IMG/VR virus record: IMGVR_UViG_3300045450_000131
Location: 1 to 33,227 of that record
DNA: 33,227 nt
Source: a virus
Taxonomy: Duplodnaviria > Heunggongvirae > Uroviricota > Caudoviricetes
Strand: one strand, 5' to 3'
A model generated the notes under the pieces. That model saw only the letters and a list, made by a program, of their open reading frames with translations. It was not told the origin of the DNA and searched no databases. Positions within the stretch are counted from its first letter, which is position 1. Every line of letters begins with the position of its first letter. The position numbers and the translations under genes were made by a program. Positions 926 to 32,310 of the stretch are shown here, piece by piece.

Positions 926-933
926 TATAAATA
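926..933 (+). promoter_or_regulatory. T4-type late promoter TATAAATA
   Basis: Exact TATAAATA about 30 nt upstream of the ATG at 965; matches the T4 gp55-dependent consensus. Confidence 0.7.
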
Positions 934-964
934 CGCAGGATAAACGATGTGAAAGAAGGTGCGT

Positions 965-1720
965 ATGATTAAACTAATCATTGCATTTATGGCTGCTATT
1001 ACCTTAACTGCGTGTGGCGCGAAAGTTGATGAAAGTAAGATAGACTTGACAGAAGAAGAGCTGCAATTTATTGCCTCCCACCCGACTGTTACCTGGGCTT
1101 TGGAAGATAACCGGCCTCCTTATATTTTTGTGGAGAATTCCAATATTAAAGGATTGTCATTTGACTACTTAGTTTTAATTTCTAAAAAGACAGGTATAAA
1201 TTTCCAGCCAATTAGAACTGCTAATTTCTTCAACTCTATCGAGGCACTTAAAAATAAGCAGGTAGATGTAATGACTGCATTACGACCAACGCCATACAGA
1301 GCAGACTTTATGGGATTTACCCCACCTATCGCGTATAATGGTGGAGTTTTTCTTTTCAGGGTAAATACATTGCCGCGGTCTCCAATGACGACTGGTATTA
1401 GAAGAGGAGAAGCGGTAAAGGACTATCTCAAAGAGAGATTCCAAGATATGAAAATTGTAGAAGTAGAAGATGATGAGCAATCAATTTCTTTATTACAGAA
1501 AGGTCTACTTGACGGTTCAGTAATGGATGCTGGAAGCGCTAATTATCTCATGAATCACGCTGCCATTAAAATGAGAAAGGCGGCCATTAATTTTGACTAT
1601 CCGTACTCTTTCGGGTATCACAAAGACAATCACATCTTGGGGTCAATTTTAACTAAGGCAGTTATCTCAATATCTAACGATGATAAGAAAACACTGAATC
1701 AACAATGGATTAAGGATTAA
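965..1720 (+). CDS. Lipoprotein with type-2 periplasmic solute-binding (SBP family 3, BvgS/EvgS sensor-like Venus-flytrap) domain
   Basis: Signal peptide with lipobox LTAC. IDLTEEELQFIASHPTVTW...RPPYIF...GLSFDYLVLISKKTGINF is the typical start of PBP2 sensor domains of histidine kinases. No kinase or transmembrane output domain follows. Confidence 0.85.
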   Translation: MIKLIIAFMAAITLTACGAKVDESKIDLTEEELQFIASHPTVTWALEDNRPPYIFVENSNIKGLSFDYLVLISKKTGINFQPIRTANFFNSIEALKNKQVDVMTALRPTPYRADFMGFTPPIAYNGGVFLFRVNTLPRSPMTTGIRRGEAVKDYLKERFQDMKIVEVEDDEQSISLLQKGLLDGSVMDAGSANYLMNHAAIKMRKAAINFDYPYSFGYHKDNHILGSILTKAVISISNDDKKTLNQQWIKD

Positions 1721-1724
1721 CTTT

Positions 1725-2369
1725 ATGAGACGCGTCATTCGAAAAATAAGGGAAGAGAGGATTTGGAAGGGCATAACATTTTGCTTAACACTTGTGACGC
1801 TTGTAGCTGTTGCTAGTGTCGCTACAATGTATATGAATCGACCAGAAAAGCCTGCATTAAAGGCGCCCAATATATCTAGCAAGGTGCTAAAGATTTCACC
1901 ACGATCAGAAAGAATGTTGACTGACTACATGAAGACAAAAAGTCTAATCGTCGCAATTAGCACTGTTGATGCCGACCTAGCTAAGAACGAACGTCGCACA
2001 ACTTTCTTGACTTCTCAAAATGTAGAATTCCAACAAATTTGGGATTCATATATATTACGGAGAGAACCTTCTCCGGCGCTATTTACTAAGGAGCCAGATC
2101 AAAATGATCGTATTGCTAATTTGTTAAATGGTAATTTAGATTGCAGAGAATTTAAACGCACAATCAATATGGGATTTATTCCTGAAGCTGAAAAAATTGC
2201 ACCATGGATTTGCTCCATTTCAGTTCCGCCCGGCTTTGATGGTAGCGGCGATTTCGTTGGATTTATTAACTTCTTCCTAACCCGTGAATTATCAGATAGG
2301 GAGAAGAAAAGATTATCAGTTGATGCCGTTGACATTTCAACAGCGATTTATAATCAGGATTTAAAATGA
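1725..2369 (+). CDS. Single-pass membrane protein with predicted periplasmic GAF-like domain (T4 holin T-like?), paralog 1
   Basis: Basic N-terminus, one hydrophobic helix (GITFCLTLVTLVAVASVATMY), two Cys, motifs RIANLLNG and ICSISVPPG..GDFVGFINFFL shared with the next ORF. The holin-like call is inference. Confidence 0.55.
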   Translation: MRRVIRKIREERIWKGITFCLTLVTLVAVASVATMYMNRPEKPALKAPNISSKVLKISPRSERMLTDYMKTKSLIVAISTVDADLAKNERRTTFLTSQNVEFQQIWDSYILRREPSPALFTKEPDQNDRIANLLNGNLDCREFKRTINMGFIPEAEKIAPWICSISVPPGFDGSGDFVGFINFFLTRELSDREKKRLSVDAVDISTAIYNQDLK

Positions 2370-3028
2370 GCACAAAGAAAGATAATACACGGAAGTGGAA
2401 AATTGCTACTATTATATTAGCGGTAGTTGCATCCATCTCCGTTGCTACTTTAGGTTGGCAGTTAAGGCAGCCAATTATTCGGCAAATTACCGGTAAAAAG
2501 GTAAACCTTGATAATGCAAGGTCTCCAAATCCTGGTAAAGAATCTCAAGCAGATTTAATAAAGTACGTTAATAGCAAAAATGCCATAATGGGAATAAATA
2601 TTGTTAAGGTGGACTTTAAGCTGAATACCCGAAGCACGACCTTTAGATATTATAAAGACGAAGCAGTCACACAAGCATGGAATGATTTTATCGCACGCAA
2701 TGTGCAAGTAGATTTGTTTGGTAAGAATGAGTTAATTAATCAACGAATTGTAAATTTAATTAATGGTCAATTTTCATGTGCACCGGTAGAAGAAACAAGT
2801 GCAGGGATGGTTATCCCAACAATTAGAGAACATGCAACGACAGTTTGTTTAGCGCCTATACCTCCAGGGTATGGCGACTTTATTGGGTTTATTAATGTGT
2901 TTTTAAGACAGCCGCCAAGTTTAGCAGATATTAAAGACGTAGAAACTGAAACAAGAAAACTCTCGCTTGATATGTATGAACGAGATATCGTAAAATCAAA
3001 TAAGAAGTTTGATATGTTTAAAATGTAA
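2366..3028 (+). CDS. Single-pass membrane protein with predicted periplasmic GAF-like domain, paralog 2
   Basis: ATGA overlap with the previous gene; TM helix IATIILAVVASISVATLGW; motifs RIVNLING and VCLAPIPPGYGDFIGFINVFL align with paralog 1. Confidence 0.55.
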   Translation: MSTKKDNTRKWKIATIILAVVASISVATLGWQLRQPIIRQITGKKVNLDNARSPNPGKESQADLIKYVNSKNAIMGINIVKVDFKLNTRSTTFRYYKDEAVTQAWNDFIARNVQVDLFGKNELINQRIVNLINGQFSCAPVEETSAGMVIPTIREHATTVCLAPIPPGYGDFIGFINVFLRQPPSLADIKDVETETRKLSLDMYERDIVKSNKKFDMFKM

Positions 3029-3052
3029 AAAGGGGCCATATGGCCCCTTTTT
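3027..3052. terminator. Bidirectional intrinsic terminator
   Basis: Perfect palindrome AAAAAGGGGCCATATGGCCCCTTTTT between convergent genes. Confidence 0.85.
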
Positions 3053-3944
3053 ATTTGTACTTACGAAGTTCGCTCCGAGTAGGAGCTTTCTCAATAACAT
3101 CATTAGATAAGTTATACTTTGCGAGTACCTTGTGATTGGCGCTTTCTCGAGAAATAACAGTTTTCTTTGGTTGAATGCGACTCCAACTTTCAATGAAATA
3201 ATGAGAGGTGGGTGGAATGTCAAAAGCTCCATTAGAAAATGTCCTCTGGTGCTGAATTCCTCGAATTGTTTTCTGCTGAGGATTCATTTTATCCCACGCT
3301 TTAATATCAATATTCCCCGGACGAGTATAATAATATTCAATTTTACGTGCATCTTTGTAGTTGTAAACATACCAGATTCCGTCAACCTTATTCAGCTCGG
3401 TATTTTCGTCAATCAGGATGCGTGCTTCTTTGTTTTTAGACTTTTCAATTTCAGCGTATTTCCTACGACGTGCGGCGTTGCTGACTCGCCGATCATTTGT
3501 CATCAAAATGTCTGTTTCGGGATCGACATACCACAAAACATAGCTTGCATACTCGAGGTCTCGCCAGCCAGAATAGTTATCGTAGATGAAGATTTCCCCA
3601 TCAACCTTTTTTGTGTTAATTTTGACGTACTGAAACAGGTGAAGCAGGATGTGGTCGTTCACAACCTTTCGCTTATCAAAGTTCTGGCAAAACTCGCTAT
3701 AGAAGTCATCCCACTTTCGCCCGACATTTTTCTCAATCATACGCTTGAGAGGGCTGAGGTTTTCGTTGAACTCTTTGCGATCCCCATAGGTACTGTAACG
3801 CTTCTTCATGCTCTCGCGGCCACCGAAAGGGTTGCCATCTTCATCGCGAATTTCGTACTTGGTTTTACGGCGTTGTTCACGGTAAGAACGTTCGTGGCCA
3901 ACGCGGGCATTTTCGGTCAGGATTTTGTTAAGGTCTTGACGCAT
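3051..3944 (-). CDS. Conserved hypothetical protein, basic, early
   Basis: 297 aa, AAGGAG RBS, early promoter upstream. Motif KEFNENLSPLKRMIEKNVGRKWDDFYSE resembles an uncharacterised bacterial family (LNENLAPLRRYL...VGRPW..VYSE). Confidence 0.85.
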   Translation of the reverse strand: MRQDLNKILTENARVGHERSYREQRRKTKYEIRDEDGNPFGGRESMKKRYSTYGDRKEFNENLSPLKRMIEKNVGRKWDDFYSEFCQNFDKRKVVNDHILLHLFQYVKINTKKVDGEIFIYDNYSGWRDLEYASYVLWYVDPETDILMTNDRRVSNAARRRKYAEIEKSKNKEARILIDENTELNKVDGIWYVYNYKDARKIEYYYTRPGNIDIKAWDKMNPQQKTIRGIQHQRTFSNGAFDIPPTSHYFIESWSRIQPKKTVISRESANHKVLAKYNLSNDVIEKAPTRSELRKYK

Positions 3945-4837: not shown

Positions 4838-4845
4838 TATTTATA
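4838..4845 (-). promoter_or_regulatory. T4-type late promoter TATAAATA
   Basis: Plus strand reads tatttata; a second box CTAAATA lies at 4877-4883. Confidence 0.7.
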
Positions 4846-4905: not shown

Positions 4906-5679
4906 CTAGTCGTAAATTGGTGTGTGTTTCAATTCTTCATATCTCGATTTTAGTTCCTCACACGCAATAGGAGCACTAATAGGAAATCTAAATGACATCA
5001 GCATTTGAGGTTGTGGTCGAAGTCCTGGTAAATTCCATGTAAGCCCTCGGGACGGCATAAAGTGATATGCTTCCACCATTAGTGCATACATGTCTGCCCA
5101 CCCGACAATGTAGTCTGAATACCTGCGCATCCCAGGCCACTTATCAACGTAGTCAAATTTAAATCTTTTCAAGATAATTTCATCTAGATTGCGCTCTACC
5201 TTTTTATATGCTTCATATAAGCCAGGAATTCGCTTGACTGGAGTTGGCAAGTCAACAATGTATGCCTCAGCAAAGTCATGCAGCAATCCGTGTAATGATA
5301 CATTGCGCTTAAATTCCAAGTCATGCATCTTAATTCGATCGCTTAAATCGGTTAAGAATTCAAATTGCTGTTCACATCTGGACTTGTGATCTTCTTTAGC
5401 ATCGTCAGACTCTAGCATTGCTTGTTCCATACCGCGCTCAATAGTTTCCATCAGCACGTCATATAGATGCTCGCCTGGAGTCAGCGCCTCCTCGATGTAG
5501 CGTGACACCATTACGGTGTGTTGGGCTACGCTATATGGCAATTCACTGAGGGTGTGGCCTCCATATCGACCTTGCCGAGATAATGCCCAGGCAATGTCAT
5601 CTAGCTTAATGTCATCTGGATTTGGGTTAACGACATCTAAAAAGATGCCGCTAACTGTTTCAATTTCATGATTCTGCAT
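4906..5679 (-). CDS. HD-domain phosphohydrolase (YfbR/YfdR-like 5'-deoxynucleotidase family)
   Basis: DIAWALSRQGRYGGHT, YSVAQH, GLLHDFAEAYIVDLPTPVK motifs; about 60-aa insertion between the motifs. Confidence 0.85.
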   Translation of the reverse strand: MQNHEIETVSGIFLDVVNPNPDDIKLDDIAWALSRQGRYGGHTLSELPYSVAQHTVMVSRYIEEALTPGEHLYDVLMETIERGMEQAMLESDDAKEDHKSRCEQQFEFLTDLSDRIKMHDLEFKRNVSLHGLLHDFAEAYIVDLPTPVKRIPGLYEAYKKVERNLDEIILKRFKFDYVDKWPGMRRYSDYIVGWADMYALMVEAYHFMPSRGLTWNLPGLRPQPQMLMSFRFPISAPIACEELKSRYEELKHTPIYD

Positions 5680-12181: not shown

Positions 12182-13327
12182 TTATACACTAACTTGAGCA
12201 AAATACCCATGTGAATCGAGTGATTCGAAAATTTTGTCCTTACGTTTGCTGTCAAGCGCATTACCCAGTTCCTTGCCTTCTAGCTCAGGAAAATCCTTCG
12301 CCTTCACACCTTCAGAATGGTGCAGGCCGCGCAGAATCTGCAAAGCTGTGTATGGGTGCTTAACTTCTTCAAATGTATTATTCACCCATTCTACAAACTC
12401 GATAAATTGCCCACACTTATATTGATCAGGATTCCAGGCCTTCAACCTCCTGAGGAGGTTGAATAGATCATGAACTGGAATTTTCTTATCAAGTTCATTG
12501 AAATATTTGTAATCCCTGAACAGATCACGAACTTCGTTATTAAAATACCGAGGATCGGTCGCACATAGCGCGATAAATGCACGGATTTTAAACTCCGTAA
12601 TATAAGCGTTTTCACCACCTAGCCGCCTGGCAAAGCCGCTAATCTCAAGGATACTTCGACGTGTGCCGGTGGTCATTTCAACAGTGCCAAAGGTATCCTT
12701 GAAGAACTTAATATTATCGAAGCAGTGCATCTTATACATCTGCTGGAAAAAGATATGTGGGTCAGTGCCTTCAAATACCTTGTAAAACTCTGCCACGAAG
12801 CGTTCTGCGGGCAGGTGATTGAGTTCCCCAGCATCGACAATGTTAACTGCCAAGTCCATAGTTGTGGGGTGAATTTCAAAACCTTCGTAATAGTAACGCG
12901 CGCAGAACCGAGCTAGACGTAACACTCGCAGCGGGTCTTCCTTAAATGCGTCGGATACATGGCGCAGAATACCATTCTTCAGGTCTTCTTGCCCACCATA
13001 CGGGTCAATAATATTACCTTGTTCATCCATCGCCATCGCATTGATGGTTAAATCGCGGCGCAGCAGGTCTTCCTCGAGAGTGACAGTAGGTGAAGCATCT
13101 ACAGTAAAGCCCAGGTAACCATTTCCCGTCTTGCGCTCAGTTCGAGCCAATGCATATTCATTGTTTGTTTCGGGGTGTAGAAAAACTGGGAAGTCCGCTC
13201 CCACCTTAATATAGCCACGCTCAAGCATGTCCTTCTCAGTCGCACCGACTACCACGTAGTCAAAGTCTTTAGGCTTAACGCCAAGCAGCATGTCACGGAC
13301 TGCACCACCAACAATGTAAACTTTCAT
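12182..13327 (-). CDS. cca: tRNA nucleotidyltransferase (CCA-adding enzyme, class II), lacking the HD domain
   Basis: [67 protein letters not shown]. Confidence 0.95.
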
Positions 13328-16378: not shown

Positions 16379-16386
16379 TATAAATA
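16379..16386 (+). promoter_or_regulatory. T4-type late promoter TATAAATA
   Basis: Exact box 27 nt upstream of ATG 16414, with GGAG RBS between. Confidence 0.7.
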
Positions 16387-20672: not shown

Positions 20673-21944
20673 TTATGGTCGCCAAAGTTCAATATTCTCA
20701 GGACATTTATTTCTATTAAGAGATGCCTTCAGGTCCATCACAACTAACTTATGATCTAACCCCTTACCATAGTTCTGGATAGTTGTCCACCCATCATCTA
20801 AAAATTGCTTGTGTGGCACCGCTAAGATGACGGCGTGGGCACCTTGATATTGATGTGGATTGATGTCAATGTTGTATTCGTGCTTTACCTCTTCTTTATT
20901 AGCTAGAGGATCAAATACCTGAATTGTTACTCCATACTGCTTTAGTTGGCAAATAGCATTAAACACCTTCGAGTTCCTAATGTCGGGTACATCCTCCTTG
21001 AAGGTGCAACCTAAAATAGTAACGATGGGGGAAGCGCCTAGCATGCGATTCCTTGCCATCAGCTTAATTAGCTGATCAACGATAAAGGACGACATGCTGT
21101 CGTTAATTTCCCTTGATGATAATATTACGTCAGCCACAAATCCCTGCACAGCTGCCTTGTGCGATAGGTAGTATGGGTCAATTGAAATGCAGTGGCCTCC
21201 TACCAATCCAGGCCTAAACTTTTGGAAATTCCACTTTGAACCAGCAGCGTCAATTACGTCATTGGTATCTACACCGAGCCGGCTGAAGATATGACTTAAC
21301 TCATTCATCAAAGCAATGTTTACGTCCCGCTGGGTATTCTCAATTACCTTTGCAGCTTCTGCAATCTTAATGCTTTGGGCTCGATATGTTTTAGTAATTT
21401 TGCCATAGATGTAGTCTAAGTTATTCAAGGTGTAGTTACTATCACCAGCCACAATTTTGGTGGTTGTAGTAAGGGTGTGTTCCTTGTCACCAGGGTTAAT
21501 TCGTTCTGGTGAATAACCGACGAAGAAGTGTTCCTTCCACTCTAAGTTAGATTCTTCTTCTAAAATCGGAACGCAGATTTCTTCTGTCACGCCTGGATAA
21601 ACAGTTGACTCATAAACCACTAAGTTGCCTGCTGTGAGGTGTTTACCAACCATCTTAGTGGCTGACTTCACTGGGTTTAAATCTGGGACGTTACCCTCCG
21701 CGACGGGTGTGGGGACGGTAATAATGTAGGTGTCTATTTCGGCTAAATCAGCTTCATTGCTTGACAGCTTCACAGTACTGTTCATGAGGGCAAAGCGACT
21801 GATTTCGTTCGTTCTATCGTGACCGCTTTTTAGTTCAGATACTCTAGATTCATTAATGTCATAACCAACAACCTTGAAGTGCTTGGCAAGCTCAACGGCA
21901 AGAGGGCAACCAACGTAGCCCAAACCAATAACCGCAATTTTCAT
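20673..21944 (-). CDS. UDP-N-acetylhexosamine C6 dehydrogenase (TviB/WbpO-like)
   Basis: GLGYVG Rossmann loop, YESTVYPG, YSPERINPG, GGHC catalytic motif, KEDVPDIRNS. Confidence 0.92.
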   Translation of the reverse strand: MKIAVIGLGYVGCPLAVELAKHFKVVGYDINESRVSELKSGHDRTNEISRFALMNSTVKLSSNEADLAEIDTYIITVPTPVAEGNVPDLNPVKSATKMVGKHLTAGNLVVYESTVYPGVTEEICVPILEEESNLEWKEHFFVGYSPERINPGDKEHTLTTTTKIVAGDSNYTLNNLDYIYGKITKTYRAQSIKIAEAAKVIENTQRDVNIALMNELSHIFSRLGVDTNDVIDAAGSKWNFQKFRPGLVGGHCISIDPYYLSHKAAVQGFVADVILSSREINDSMSSFIVDQLIKLMARNRMLGASPIVTILGCTFKEDVPDIRNSKVFNAICQLKQYGVTIQVFDPLANKEEVKHEYNIDINPHQYQGAHAVILAVPHKQFLDDGWTTIQNYGKGLDHKLVVMDLKASLNRNKCPENIELWRP

Positions 21945-23868: not shown

Positions 23869-25371
23869 TTAGTCCTTAGTCAGAGTAACCAGAATAAGTT
23901 CTTCCATTGCGCGGGTGGTTGCAACATAGCACAGGTTGTCTTCCTGTTCCAGTTCCCACTGCTTCTTAGCGAAGCCAGACGGGCCAGTTTGGAGCCAAAA
24001 GACACGCTTCCATTCCAGGCCCTTGCTGCGGTGGATAGAGCAAAGCAATACCACCGGCTTCTTGCTTTCTTCCTGGCCAAAGATTTCATCAATCTCGAGT
24101 TCAATTGCCTGCTGAGGGCTGAGCTTGGTGTTTTTGGCCATCGCCCGAGTAATGATGACCTTCAAGCACTGCAGTTTGTCCATCAGATCATCAGCTTGAC
24201 GGTTCTTCTCCTGTGCAAGCAGCTTCTTGATTTCACGCTCTTCAAACTCTTCCAGCTTGGTAATCAGGGCATCAAACGTCTTGCACTTCCAACGACCAGC
24301 AAGCTTCTTCAGACCACTAGCAATTTCACGGCCTTCAATACGGGCCGGGATACCAGCACCAATAAATTGGTAGACGTATTTAATGAGGGGAGCATTGAAG
24401 CGGGAAACAATTGCATCACCAACTTTAGCGACCTTCATCAGTTCGGTGTCTACCAGTTGGCTGACAACACCTGGGGCTGCAGTGGGCGAGCACTCAATGT
24501 GATTCACCCACTGCTTTGCATGTGCAACGACATTCTGTGGGCACCGGAAGGTGAAGGACAAGGGCAGCTTGATTGCATTGACTGCATTGCCGATAAGTTC
24601 CAAGCTGTTAGCATCAGCACCGGTGAAACCATAAATTGCCTGATGCTTGTCGCCGACTGCAACCAGTCGGCCATTTTGCTTCATCATCAGCACTGCGAGG
24701 TAACGGCGGGAAGCGTTGGTGTCTTGGGCTTCATCAAGTAGAACCCAGTCATACTCGTCAATAGAGACGTTGTGGTAGAGGGGTGCGAAGATCATGTCAT
24801 CGAAATCGATCACGCGGTTATTGTTAGCAATAGAACGCTTGAAGACATCTTTTGCCAAGTTGATAATAACATCGGTGTTGTCAATACCGGATTTCTCATC
24901 GAAGCACTCTACGCCGAAGTGATCGATAAACTTAATCCATTCACCACGGTCACTCTCATTGCTATTATAGCCAAGAGCGGCCTGCTTCGCATAGGAAACC
25001 AGCTGCAATACTGGGCCTTCAAACAAACCATAGCCGAAGATTCCCTGGGTGACCATGCGGTAGATGTCGCGGCACTTGTCATTGTTGACTTGAACTCGAG
25101 GTGCCGCCTTACGCCATGCTTTAAAACCGGCGGCGTGCATGGTAGAAATATTCAGGCCATTCTTGAGCTTAGGAGCACGGTCAGAAATCTCAACGGCGAT
25201 CTTTTTGTTGTAGGCACCGAAGAAGATGGTGCCCTTCATAATTTTGAGAGCTTCGATAAGGGTGGTAGTTTTGCCGCTACCAGCAACTGCTTCCAAAACA
25301 CACGAACCTTCACCATCCTTAATCCAGTTGAAGAAGGTGGTCTGTTGTGCGGAAGGAAGAAATTTGCTCAT
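23869..25371 (-). CDS. Superfamily 1 UvrD/Rep-like helicase
   Basis: AVAGSGKTT, DEAQD, VGDKHQAIYGF, FRCP, SIHRSKGLEW and YVATTRA motifs. Confidence 0.93.
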   Translation of the reverse strand: MSKFLPSAQQTTFFNWIKDGEGSCVLEAVAGSGKTTTLIEALKIMKGTIFFGAYNKKIAVEISDRAPKLKNGLNISTMHAAGFKAWRKAAPRVQVNNDKCRDIYRMVTQGIFGYGLFEGPVLQLVSYAKQAALGYNSNESDRGEWIKFIDHFGVECFDEKSGIDNTDVIINLAKDVFKRSIANNNRVIDFDDMIFAPLYHNVSIDEYDWVLLDEAQDTNASRRYLAVLMMKQNGRLVAVGDKHQAIYGFTGADANSLELIGNAVNAIKLPLSFTFRCPQNVVAHAKQWVNHIECSPTAAPGVVSQLVDTELMKVAKVGDAIVSRFNAPLIKYVYQFIGAGIPARIEGREIASGLKKLAGRWKCKTFDALITKLEEFEEREIKKLLAQEKNRQADDLMDKLQCLKVIITRAMAKNTKLSPQQAIELEIDEIFGQEESKKPVVLLCSIHRSKGLEWKRVFWLQTGPSGFAKKQWELEQEDNLCYVATTRAMEELILVTLTKD

Positions 25372-25435: not shown

Positions 25436-26032
25436 TTAATTTAGAATTCCAGTACCCTTTGGTGGTGTAAAATTAAAGTGATCTGCCGAGAATGTAATAT
25501 TTCTTTGAATTTGATAAAAATTAATAATGATTGTGTTATCAAATACGTCTTGAATCTGCATAATGACTGGCATGTTATTCTTCATTGCGACTCTGACCAT
25601 CTCAATCATGCCGTCATTGACTTTGGGTAACACTCTTACCCATTCTAGCCCATCATTAGATATGTCTTCAGACAAATTATATGATTTCGTAATGTCATTG
25701 CCAAATAAAATCATGGCTGGTGAATTACTAGCCGTCTGCTTAGCGGACTTTTTAGTTAACTGATTAAGGTCCTTGTCATAAATGAACAAGGTTACACCAT
25801 CAGATTGTAATGTCTGCTCAAATGGCAAACGGTATTCCCAAATAAACTTTCCAGGCTTTGCAAATTCAAACATGCCGGCGGCAGTTTTATTGCCCTTGCC
25901 GCCTTTGGTGACTTGGGCAAAGTTACCTTTTGCCGAATTTGTAGTAGAAGTGAATTGTTTAAGTTGCTCAACTGCACCTGCAAATGAAGAAGTGGAGAGT
26001 GCAAGTAAAAATATTGCTAACAGCTGTTTCAT
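25436..26032 (-). CDS. lolA: Periplasmic lipoprotein chaperone LolA homolog
   Basis: Sec signal; GNFAQV, GMFEFAKPGKFIWEY..PFEQ.LQSDG..LFIYDKDLNQLT, SPAMILFG, FNFTPPKG span the full LolA fold. Start ATG 26032 after AAGGA. Confidence 0.9.
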   Translation of the reverse strand: MKQLLAIFLLALSTSSFAGAVEQLKQFTSTTNSAKGNFAQVTKGGKGNKTAAGMFEFAKPGKFIWEYRLPFEQTLQSDGVTLFIYDKDLNQLTKKSAKQTASNSPAMILFGNDITKSYNLSEDISNDGLEWVRVLPKVNDGMIEMVRVAMKNNMPVIMQIQDVFDNTIIINFYQIQRNITFSADHFNFTPPKGTGILN

Positions 26033-26068
26033 AACATCCTTTATAAGAGTAGGATTTTTCACCACTCT

Positions 26069-30942: not shown

Positions 30943-30950
30943 TATTTATA
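30943..30950 (-). promoter_or_regulatory. T4-type late promoter TATAAATA
   Basis: Exact box, embedded in a CTTCTT/AAGAAG inverted repeat. Confidence 0.7.
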
Positions 30951-32302: not shown

Positions 32303-32310
32303 TATTTATA
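32303..32310 (-). promoter_or_regulatory. T4-type late promoter TATAAATA
   Basis: Exact box directly abutting the inverted-repeat element; a TATAAT also lies at 32282-32287. Confidence 0.65.

Follow-up and report, generated by a model that had tools for sequence, protein, structure and literature searches.

A Venus-flytrap lipoprotein gene beside paired membrane proteins of T4 holin T-like architecture: a possible lysis-timing cassette in a giant phage from a leaf metagenome

Introduction

Holins are the clocks of phage infection, and apart from the T/RI pair of phage T4 no system is known whose lysis clock is reset by a periplasmic signal. T consists of a small cytoplasmic N-domain, a transmembrane (TM) helix and a periplasmic C-domain, and RI binds that periplasmic domain to shift the time of triggering (PMC11413866). 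The subject of this study is a three-gene cassette in IMG/VR virus record IMGVR_UViG_3300045450_000131, which encodes a Venus-flytrap lipoprotein followed by two membrane proteins whose predicted architecture and fold resemble those of T. We read the cassette, tentatively, as a holin-like pair of T type that times lysis under the influence of the flytrap lipoprotein; this is a serious possibility, although short of probable.

The stretch analyzed, hereafter the window, comprises the first 33 kb (33,227 nucleotides, nt) of this 162-kb record, for which CheckV estimates a completeness of 45%. The record originates from a leaf metagenome, and the stretch was detected only in two DNA runs of one sample, one of which may itself be the source, with no RNA run listed. 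A relative, G001, is 349,660 bp long and 97% complete. An earlier reading of the DNA letters (the original prediction) had proposed that a metabolite sensor, detached from its kinase, is coupled here to a holin/antiholin-like pair.

Layout and conservation of the cassette

Three plus-strand open reading frames (ORFs) lie at 926–3054, flanked by minus-strand genes at 2–808 and 3051–3944. Genes 1 and 2 are spaced by 4 nt, and genes 2 and 3 overlap by an ATGA. The features are as follows:

926–933, plus strand: promoter-like box TATAAATA, resembling T4-type late promoters, 32 nt upstream of the ATG at 965
965–1720, plus strand: gene 1, stand-alone flytrap (SBP_bac_3) lipoprotein, 251 amino acids (aa) from ATG 965 or 253 aa from GTG 959
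1725–2369, plus strand: gene 2, position-1 paralog, 214 aa, with an N-tail of 16 aa, a TM helix at ~17–35, a ~20-aa linker, a predicted periplasmic GAF fold at ~57–214, and C140 and C163
2366–3028, plus strand: gene 3, position-2 paralog, 220 aa, with an N-tail of 12 aa, a TM helix at ~13–31, a predicted periplasmic GAF fold, and C138 and C161
3025–3054, not assigned to a strand: G+C-rich palindromic hairpin, a terminator common to the cassette and the convergent minus-strand gene at 3051–3944

ORF calls and sequence agree on the unit as it was first described, with three plus-strand genes that run against the local gene flow between a promoter box and a bidirectional terminator. The hairpin is a perfect palindrome (an A-run, GGGGCC ATAT GGCCCC and a T-run, forming a 13-pair stem with 6 GC pairs) and can therefore serve both strands; a similar hairpin lies 3' of the cassette in contig L024.

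The flytrap gene and genes of the family to which genes 2 and 3 belong occur together, at 36–70% identity, in eight distinct cassettes: those of the window, of a 349-kb and a 376-kb jumbo contig, and of L003/4, L005, L010, L026 and L027. Co-occurrence, which the original prediction needed in other genomes, holds for every flytrap homolog whose context was readable. The family genes follow the flytrap gene on the same strand, against the flow of their neighbors, in ORFs that overlap or nearly touch. Six cassettes consist of the flytrap gene and two paralogs, and in L026 the flytrap gene is followed by one family gene. A third, divergent paralog group (231–252 aa, with the same Cys pair) is represented immediately upstream of the flytrap gene in L010 (L010:932–1627), and L027, one of the six two-paralog cassettes, holds a further divergent copy ~2 kb upstream of its flytrap gene (L027:1186–1944). 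Searches with the gene 3 group and the flytrap alignment recovered G001 and one further contig only. The cassette DNA has no match among 50,697 phage records. A tblastn search with gene 2 gave no match either.

Family pairs also occur without a flytrap gene, in phage contigs L006–9 and L025. A small single-TM ORF lies 3' of such pairs, encoding 58 aa at L025:6356–6532, where it shares an ATGA overlap with the stop of the second paralog, and 65 aa at L009:1260–1457; its product may also belong to the module.

The box TATAAATA occurs six times in the window, against 1.8 expected, and none of 100 shuffles reached six. Four of the five other copies lie directly upstream of ORF starts (4838–4845, minus strand; 16379–16386, plus strand; 30943–30950, minus strand; 32303–32310, minus strand). 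Across the eight flytrap cassettes, a (T/C)ATAAATA or TTAAATA box is present in every case, ~15–55 nt upstream of the start, and a box of the same type precedes one family pair that lacks the flytrap gene. G001 carries a gene for a homolog of gp55, the late sigma factor of T4 (E 1.3e-7; L038, G001:46353–46658). Given the conserved box and this gp55 homolog in a 97%-complete relative, late transcription of the cassette can reasonably be supposed, in line with the late operon originally proposed. The TATAAATA boxes before several window ORFs, together with gp55 in G001, further suggest that T4-type late promoters are probably in use across this group of jumbo phages. In T4 itself, t belongs to the late genes.

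Literature searches on holins with GAF domains, and on jumbo phages with a solute-binding protein and a holin, turned up no account of this arrangement; the original prediction knew of none either.

A flytrap lipoprotein detached from its kinase

The only Pfam match of gene 1 is SBP_bac_3 (PF00497; 3.7e-15, residues 45–252). Its best sequence matches among solved structures are the VFT2 domain of BvgS (4q0c residues 330–558, 3.1e-21) and EvgS (1.1e-15), followed by the periplasmic domain of an EAL protein (7.5e-13), all three over residues ~27–252; amino-acid ATP-binding cassette (ABC) binding proteins match far worse (1e-6 or weaker). The 251-aa product contains no kinase, PAS or cyclase part and no TM segment. 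From ATG 965, it begins with a signal peptide ending, as read from the sequence, in the lipobox L-T-A-C. The lipoboxes of eight gene 1 orthologs read LTAC, LTGC, LAGC, LVGC, FSGC, ILGC or LQGC, and the lipobox residue Cys17 is invariant in 27 homologs; the product is presumably lipid-anchored through this Cys. The claim that gene 1 encodes a free lipoprotein made of a BvgS/EvgS-type domain alone is thus upheld by its single Pfam domain, its match to BvgS VFT2, its length and its lipobox.

The 27 homologs are stand-alone proteins of 241–265 aa, with PF00497 only and all on phage-like contigs (longer forms were not searched). One of them is named 'sensor histidine kinase EvgS' in its JGI record. 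Gene 1 also matches PHROG 10776 over positions 24–273 of 674, a length which hints at fused phage forms of the flytrap domain. The likeness to BvgS VFT2 and EvgS is one of sequence over the flytrap domain; unlike those domains, the gene 1 product is phage-encoded and unfused, bears a lipobox Cys and, in the contexts read, is always encoded beside genes of the GAF-TM family.

The residue at position +2 is never Asp in the eight orthologs. Elsewhere in the window lies a gene for a LolA lipoprotein carrier (PF03548, 1.1e-32; 25436–26065, minus strand). A LolA of its own and a cassette lipoprotein without Asp at +2 suggest that, late in infection, the phage devotes resources to moving lipoproteins to the outer membrane.

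An old tandem pair of membrane proteins

Sequence comparison shows genes 2 and 3 to be paralogs (30% identity, E 1e-24), each with one N-terminal hydrophobic helix. An exhaustive phmmer search (E up to 0.001) gathered 225 family cluster representatives at 50% identity, almost wholly viral, for which there is no Pfam model; the best 150 of the 225 are nearly all 190–230 aa long, and family lengths are given as 197–232 aa, with one hydrophobic helix within the first 45 residues. In an alignment of 100 family members, the invariant residues are two Cys, one Pro and one Gly, and there is strong conservation of N-x-R, P-L-F, L-I-N-G-x-F-x-C and C-x3-I-P-P-x-Y-G-x-F-x-G motifs. The invariant Cys stand 23 residues apart (C140/C163 in gene 2, C138/C161 in gene 3). 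Gene 2 has a third, non-conserved Cys inside its TM helix; the first description of the pair, as paralogs of ~215 aa with one TM helix and two Cys each, holds for paralogy, length, TM helix and conserved Cys pair, but not for the Cys count of gene 2.

Sequence searches place the family apart from described domains. Neither PF11031 (Phage_holin_T, the Pfam family of T) nor the Pfam GAF models are among the 25 most-matched of the 32 families hit by 100 family members (E up to 0.1). The family profile yields noise only against PDB sequences, over the TM region. In PHROGs, gene 3 weakly matches a family of unknown function and gene 2 has no match. A word-indexed profile search with the family alignment returned 7 matches, none with a Pfam domain, and hence no bridge to PF11031. 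A maximum-likelihood tree separates a position-1 clade (support 93/96) from a position-2 clade (100/99), from which it follows that the duplication is old and that both copies have been retained.

The N-tails carry a net charge of +5 (gene 2) and +4 (gene 3); the charge is positive in most family members, and basic tails recur in several cassettes. With these basic tails (by the positive-inside rule), a single hydrophobic helix, and two Cys whose pairing calls for an oxidizing compartment, both products would adopt an N-in/C-out topology.

Two alternatives arise from this layout. In the first, the cassette performs transmembrane signaling: the flytrap would sense a ligand, and the basic tails, or regulated proteolysis of the GAF-TM proteins, would act on a cytoplasmic target, in an anti-sigma or RIII–T manner. 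The flytrap type is one that feeds the BvgS and EvgS kinases, the tails of the window pair are strongly basic, as are others elsewhere, and the 674 positions of PHROG 10776 represent longer phage proteins with the same domain. However, tails of 0–25 aa, without any conserved motif, vary too much and leave too little room for an output domain, and no partner gene is conserved beside the cassette. We consider this role improbable.

The second alternative is an envelope-spanning tether, laid out as in two-component spanins, in which gene 1 provides an outer-membrane lipoprotein that pairs across the periplasm with the type II inner-membrane proteins of genes 2 and 3, so as to join or disrupt both membranes when the host lyses. 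A lipoprotein and predicted N-in/C-out membrane proteins do share one putative late operon here; the absence of Asp at +2 and the phage's own LolA would suit an outer-membrane location, and the linkers of ~20 aa in genes 2 and 3 and ~12 aa in gene 1 appear flexible from models and sequence. But i-spanins are coiled coils and o-spanins small proline-rich lipoproteins, whereas all three periplasmic parts of the cassette are globular folds of ligand-binding type (flytrap and GAF), and many family pairs and single genes occur with no lipoprotein gene. A tether has, in our view, little chance of being the correct explanation.

Predicted fold of genes 2 and 3

AlphaFold2 models of both products are confident by their own measures (predicted local distance difference test, pLDDT, 93.6 for gene 2 and 91.9 for gene 3; predicted template modeling score, pTM, 0.80 and 0.82). 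Both comprise a long N-terminal helix, a linker of ~20 residues, and a single alpha/beta domain with a GAF fold. In VIA-align searches of 48,161 PDB representatives, gene 2 matches a cyanobacteriochrome GAF domain (Z 13.6) and a far-red cyanobacteriochrome (Z 12.7), with the periplasmic domain of T4 holin T (6pxe_T) at rank 3 (Z 12.7, root-mean-square deviation, rmsd, 3.1, 137 residues aligned). For gene 3, 6pxe_T ranks first (Z 13.0, rmsd 3.2, 139/147 aligned), and the next matches have Z 12.2. Foldseek against the PDB recovers GAF domains, LuxR-type autoinducer receptors, and both T entries (6pxe and 6px4) in the top 20, at E 3e-4 to 2e-3.

Matches in the AlphaFold DB clusters are bacterial GAF sensor domains. 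In BFVD, the family's own members rank first, the top match being an unnamed 193-aa entry (1.6e-10) assumed to be the protein of phage S13; uncharacterized 190–240-aa proteins of the jumbo phages GAP32, RaK2 and Tenacibaculum pT24 come next, and the annotated holins found there are the Class III holin of Proteus phage Stubb (2.6e-4), the T holin of Serratia phage PS2 and the holin of Proteus phage phiP4-3. The nearest ESM Atlas clusters are 93–100% viral. PF11031 is assigned there to 23% of the members of one cluster (score 0.96, 205/256 features) and to 12% of those of a structural neighbor (TM-score 0.60), figures that serve as leads only.

In these models, then, T is as good a structural match as any solved structure, and it is inseparable by score from other GAF domains. 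The T-like GAF fold of the original prediction is borne out as far as the ranks of 6pxe_T go, but not as something distinct from a generic GAF domain. Cytoplasmic GAF and LuxR-type autoinducer-binding domains have the same fold (Z 9–13.6, Foldseek E ~1e-4 to 1e-3); theirs are cytoplasmic and fused to outputs, whereas the domains of genes 2 and 3 are predicted to be periplasmic and disulfide-bonded, with a TM anchor only. When the periplasmic domains of genes 2 and 3 were modeled with the mature flytrap as the scored partner and alignments given, the interaction prediction score from aligned errors (ipSAE) was 0.00 in two runs without controls, a result that counts neither for nor against contact.

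Relatives in cultured phages

Among the 50,697 cultured phage records, family members are found in Cronobacter S13, LPCS28 and Citrobacter Ci1 (T4-like), in one copy each, with one further marginal record (uncultured Bacteriophage sp., E 0.08). The S13 protein aligns with the family at an hhalign probability of 99.3% (E 2e-20). Both S13_076 (L013:3950–4531) and its Ci1 homolog (L014:361–960) are annotated 'hypothetical' and lie on the strand opposite to their neighbors in these Straboviridae genomes. A T homolog is present in 1,980 phage records, yet PF11031 has no match in S13 or Ci1, with T4 as control at 1.3e-119. No TAAATA box lies within 100 nt upstream of the S13 or Ci1 family gene, and two papers that mention phage LPCS28 contain nothing on holins. 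The family member is a candidate for the missing holin of S13 and Ci1.

Klebsiella phage RaK2, for which no holin is known, offers a more distant comparison. PF11031 is absent from it, and the paper describing RaK2 reports that T and RI are absent (PMC3622015). Its ORF146w and ORF145w form a tandem unit (L035:3683–5062) of 240-aa and 214-aa TM proteins, opposite in strand to their neighbors, as is the cassette pair. ORF146w aligns with the family marginally, at 87% probability over 48 columns of the C-terminus, and ORF145w shows no sequence link by hhalign (0.7%); the rank 5 match in BFVD is a 214-aa RaK2 protein, presumed to be ORF145w. S13, LPCS28, Ci1 and RaK2 all differ from the cassette in having no flytrap lipoprotein gene, and S13 and Ci1 also in their single copy. 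Because S13 and Ci1 lack T and carry a family member, and RaK2 is likewise without T, the pattern among phages fits displacement of T by this family, although the case is circumstantial.

Comparison with T4 holin T

The predicted likeness to T has several parts. Both are phage-encoded proteins of ~215 aa with a short N-tail, one TM helix, a large periplasmic alpha/beta domain of GAF-like fold and a Cys pair (the topology being predicted for the family); the cassette has a box resembling late promoters, and T4 t is a late gene; and T4 t and the cassette both lie head-on to their downstream neighbors. The control proposed here, by a separate periplasmic protein, mirrors that of T by RI. The differences are that the family occurs as two anciently duplicated tandem genes where T has one, has shorter N-tails and other Cys positions, and lacks detectable sequence similarity to T.

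For sequence comparison we used a T alignment of nine sequences (T4, T5, Vibrio phage Chazly21, POP12, Margaery, IME13, Acj61, Makalu and a Klebsiella T5-like phage), in which the invariant residues include H145, G148, C175, P176, G186, W192 and C207. A six-frame search of G000 and G001 found no PF11031. One hhalign alignment pairs PGF...GDFVGFINFFL of gene 2 with PYFNLDNIYAGTITMYW of T4 T, and two of three alignments (those at 0.3% and 1.7%) fall on the same strand, an aromatic-x-G-x-I followed by Pro. The motif correspondence to T that had been drawn by eye is thus reproduced by hhalign, but at probabilities of 0.3–3.7% it is without statistical support. Sequence homology to Phage_holin_T is not detectable, either with PF11031 or by hhalign. 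We had also entertained the idea that the family Cys pair is homologous to the T disulfide and dropped it: in T the paired Cys are C175 and C207, which belong to the C-terminal helix.

A number of these and other observations weigh against a holin pair. The Z-scores of T are tied with those of cyanobacteriochrome and other GAF domains (13.6 to 11), and therefore the fold alone says 'GAF' and not 'holin'. PF11031 matches neither gene 2 nor gene 3, even with E allowed up to 1. The family aligns with the nine-sequence T alignment at 3.7% probability, over the N-tail and TM region only, and the figures fall to 1.7% with a family sub-profile and 0.3% against T4 T alone. The Cys pair sits on strands that come between the LING and PP motifs, and not at the T positions. 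N-tails in the flytrap-linked cassettes measure 0–25 aa (L027 position 1 has none), compared with 29 aa in T4 T by the same estimate; pore formation by T is reported to require its cytoplasmic region (PMC12162936). No endolysin or spanin gene lies beside the cassette or the flytrap-less pairs in ~12 contexts, and PF00959 is absent from G000 and G001. G001 encodes, in L031 (G001:94843–97983), an SLT-domain protein of 210 aa that has a signal anchor at its N-terminus (1432–2064 of that locus, minus strand), and, two genes upstream of it, a 95-aa PQ-loop protein with three TM helices (2792–3079, minus strand). The SLT-domain protein is a candidate exported or signal-arrest-release (SAR)-type endolysin, and the two genes may constitute a separate lysis module. 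Finally, the annotation of RaK2 ORF145w reads 'virion structural protein'. The missing linkage to lysis genes has a parallel in T4, where t is also unlinked to e.

That last annotation opens the question of whether these are virion-associated membrane or structural proteins and not effectors at the host membrane. The hhalign result for ORF145w does not tie it to the family, however; tailed phages have no membrane, and membrane proteins are common contaminants of virion preparations. A lipoprotein and an invariant, predicted periplasmic Cys pair point instead to the host envelope, and we regard a virion role as very improbable indeed.

A further alternative is that the cassette is a periplasmic sensing or protection module that makes no hole, binding a small molecule or an envelope component late in infection in the service of excluding superinfecting phages, masking a receptor, or conditioning the envelope for assembly and release; the GAF domains would then bind ligands or partners and would not be holin ectodomains. 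GAF domains and LuxR-type receptors score as well as T in fold searches, the tails on the cytoplasmic side are very short, lysis genes are missing from the neighborhood, and G001 has its separate candidate lysis module; the genome also carries other envelope cassettes, and the window its LolA. Against this, exclusion functions are usually early genes and the conserved box is late-type; no Pfam GAF model is among the most-matched families listed above, and thus no known ligand class is indicated; and T4-like phages without T carry the family. Such a module is somewhat unlikely. For the superinfection role that the original prediction also named, the evidence speaks neither way.

Taken together, the family shares the architecture and fold of T, as far as models can indicate, and sequence does not place it in the T family; very distant homology is possible. 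What stands of the coupling of a detached sensor to a holin/antiholin-like pair is the fold, the architecture, the presence of a Cys pair, the BvgS/EvgS type of the sensor and the co-occurrence of the genes; sequence homology and the position of the T disulfide do not.

A tentative model for lysis timing

If the cassette is a T-type holin-like pair under flytrap control, it would be expressed late and act at the envelope, where it would set or adjust the moment at which the host lyses. The products of genes 2 and 3 would be inner-membrane proteins of class III (T4 T-type) holin architecture, most likely forming a hetero-oligomer, either of two holin subunits or of a holin and a homologous antiholin. 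The gene 1 lipoprotein, presumably made with them from one late transcript, would take an RI-like role, docking on the GAF domains in the periplasm, and the ligand state of the flytrap cleft would delay or permit triggering. We infer hole formation, the contact between flytrap and GAF domains, and the existence and nature of the ligand. The partner would differ from RI, which is small, in being a 25-kDa Venus-flytrap lipoprotein. The class III holin architecture is known; what is new is the flytrap type of partner. The fuller proposal, that in a clade of uncultivated plant-associated jumbo phages a periplasmic small molecule gates lysis time through a kinase-less BvgS-type flytrap wired to a heteromeric holin pair of T architecture and replacing RI, which would make it a small-molecule counterpart of T4 lysis inhibition, is unlikely as it stands.

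Elsewhere in the window, minus-strand accessory genes encode a YfbR-like deoxynucleoside monophosphate (dNMP) phosphatase (4906–5679), a nucleotidyltransferase of poly(A) polymerase or CCA-adding type (12182–13327), a uridine diphosphate (UDP)-glucose dehydrogenase (20673–21944) and a UvrD-type helicase (23869–25371).

Significance

Should the cassette prove to be a holin system, it would reveal a large, unannotated family of T architecture, with 225 clusters at 50% identity and no Pfam model, which may fill the place of the 'missing holin' of jumbo phages and of some T4-like ones, such as S13, Ci1 and perhaps RaK2. It would also present a natural sensor domain coupled to a membrane-lesion protein with no intervening kinase. 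Were that coupling true, environmental control of lysis would become testable with three small genes, which would also make a useful ligand-gated lysis switch. Even if the function is another, a detached BvgS-type flytrap that is conserved beside membrane-tethered periplasmic GAF domains represents a new signaling layout.

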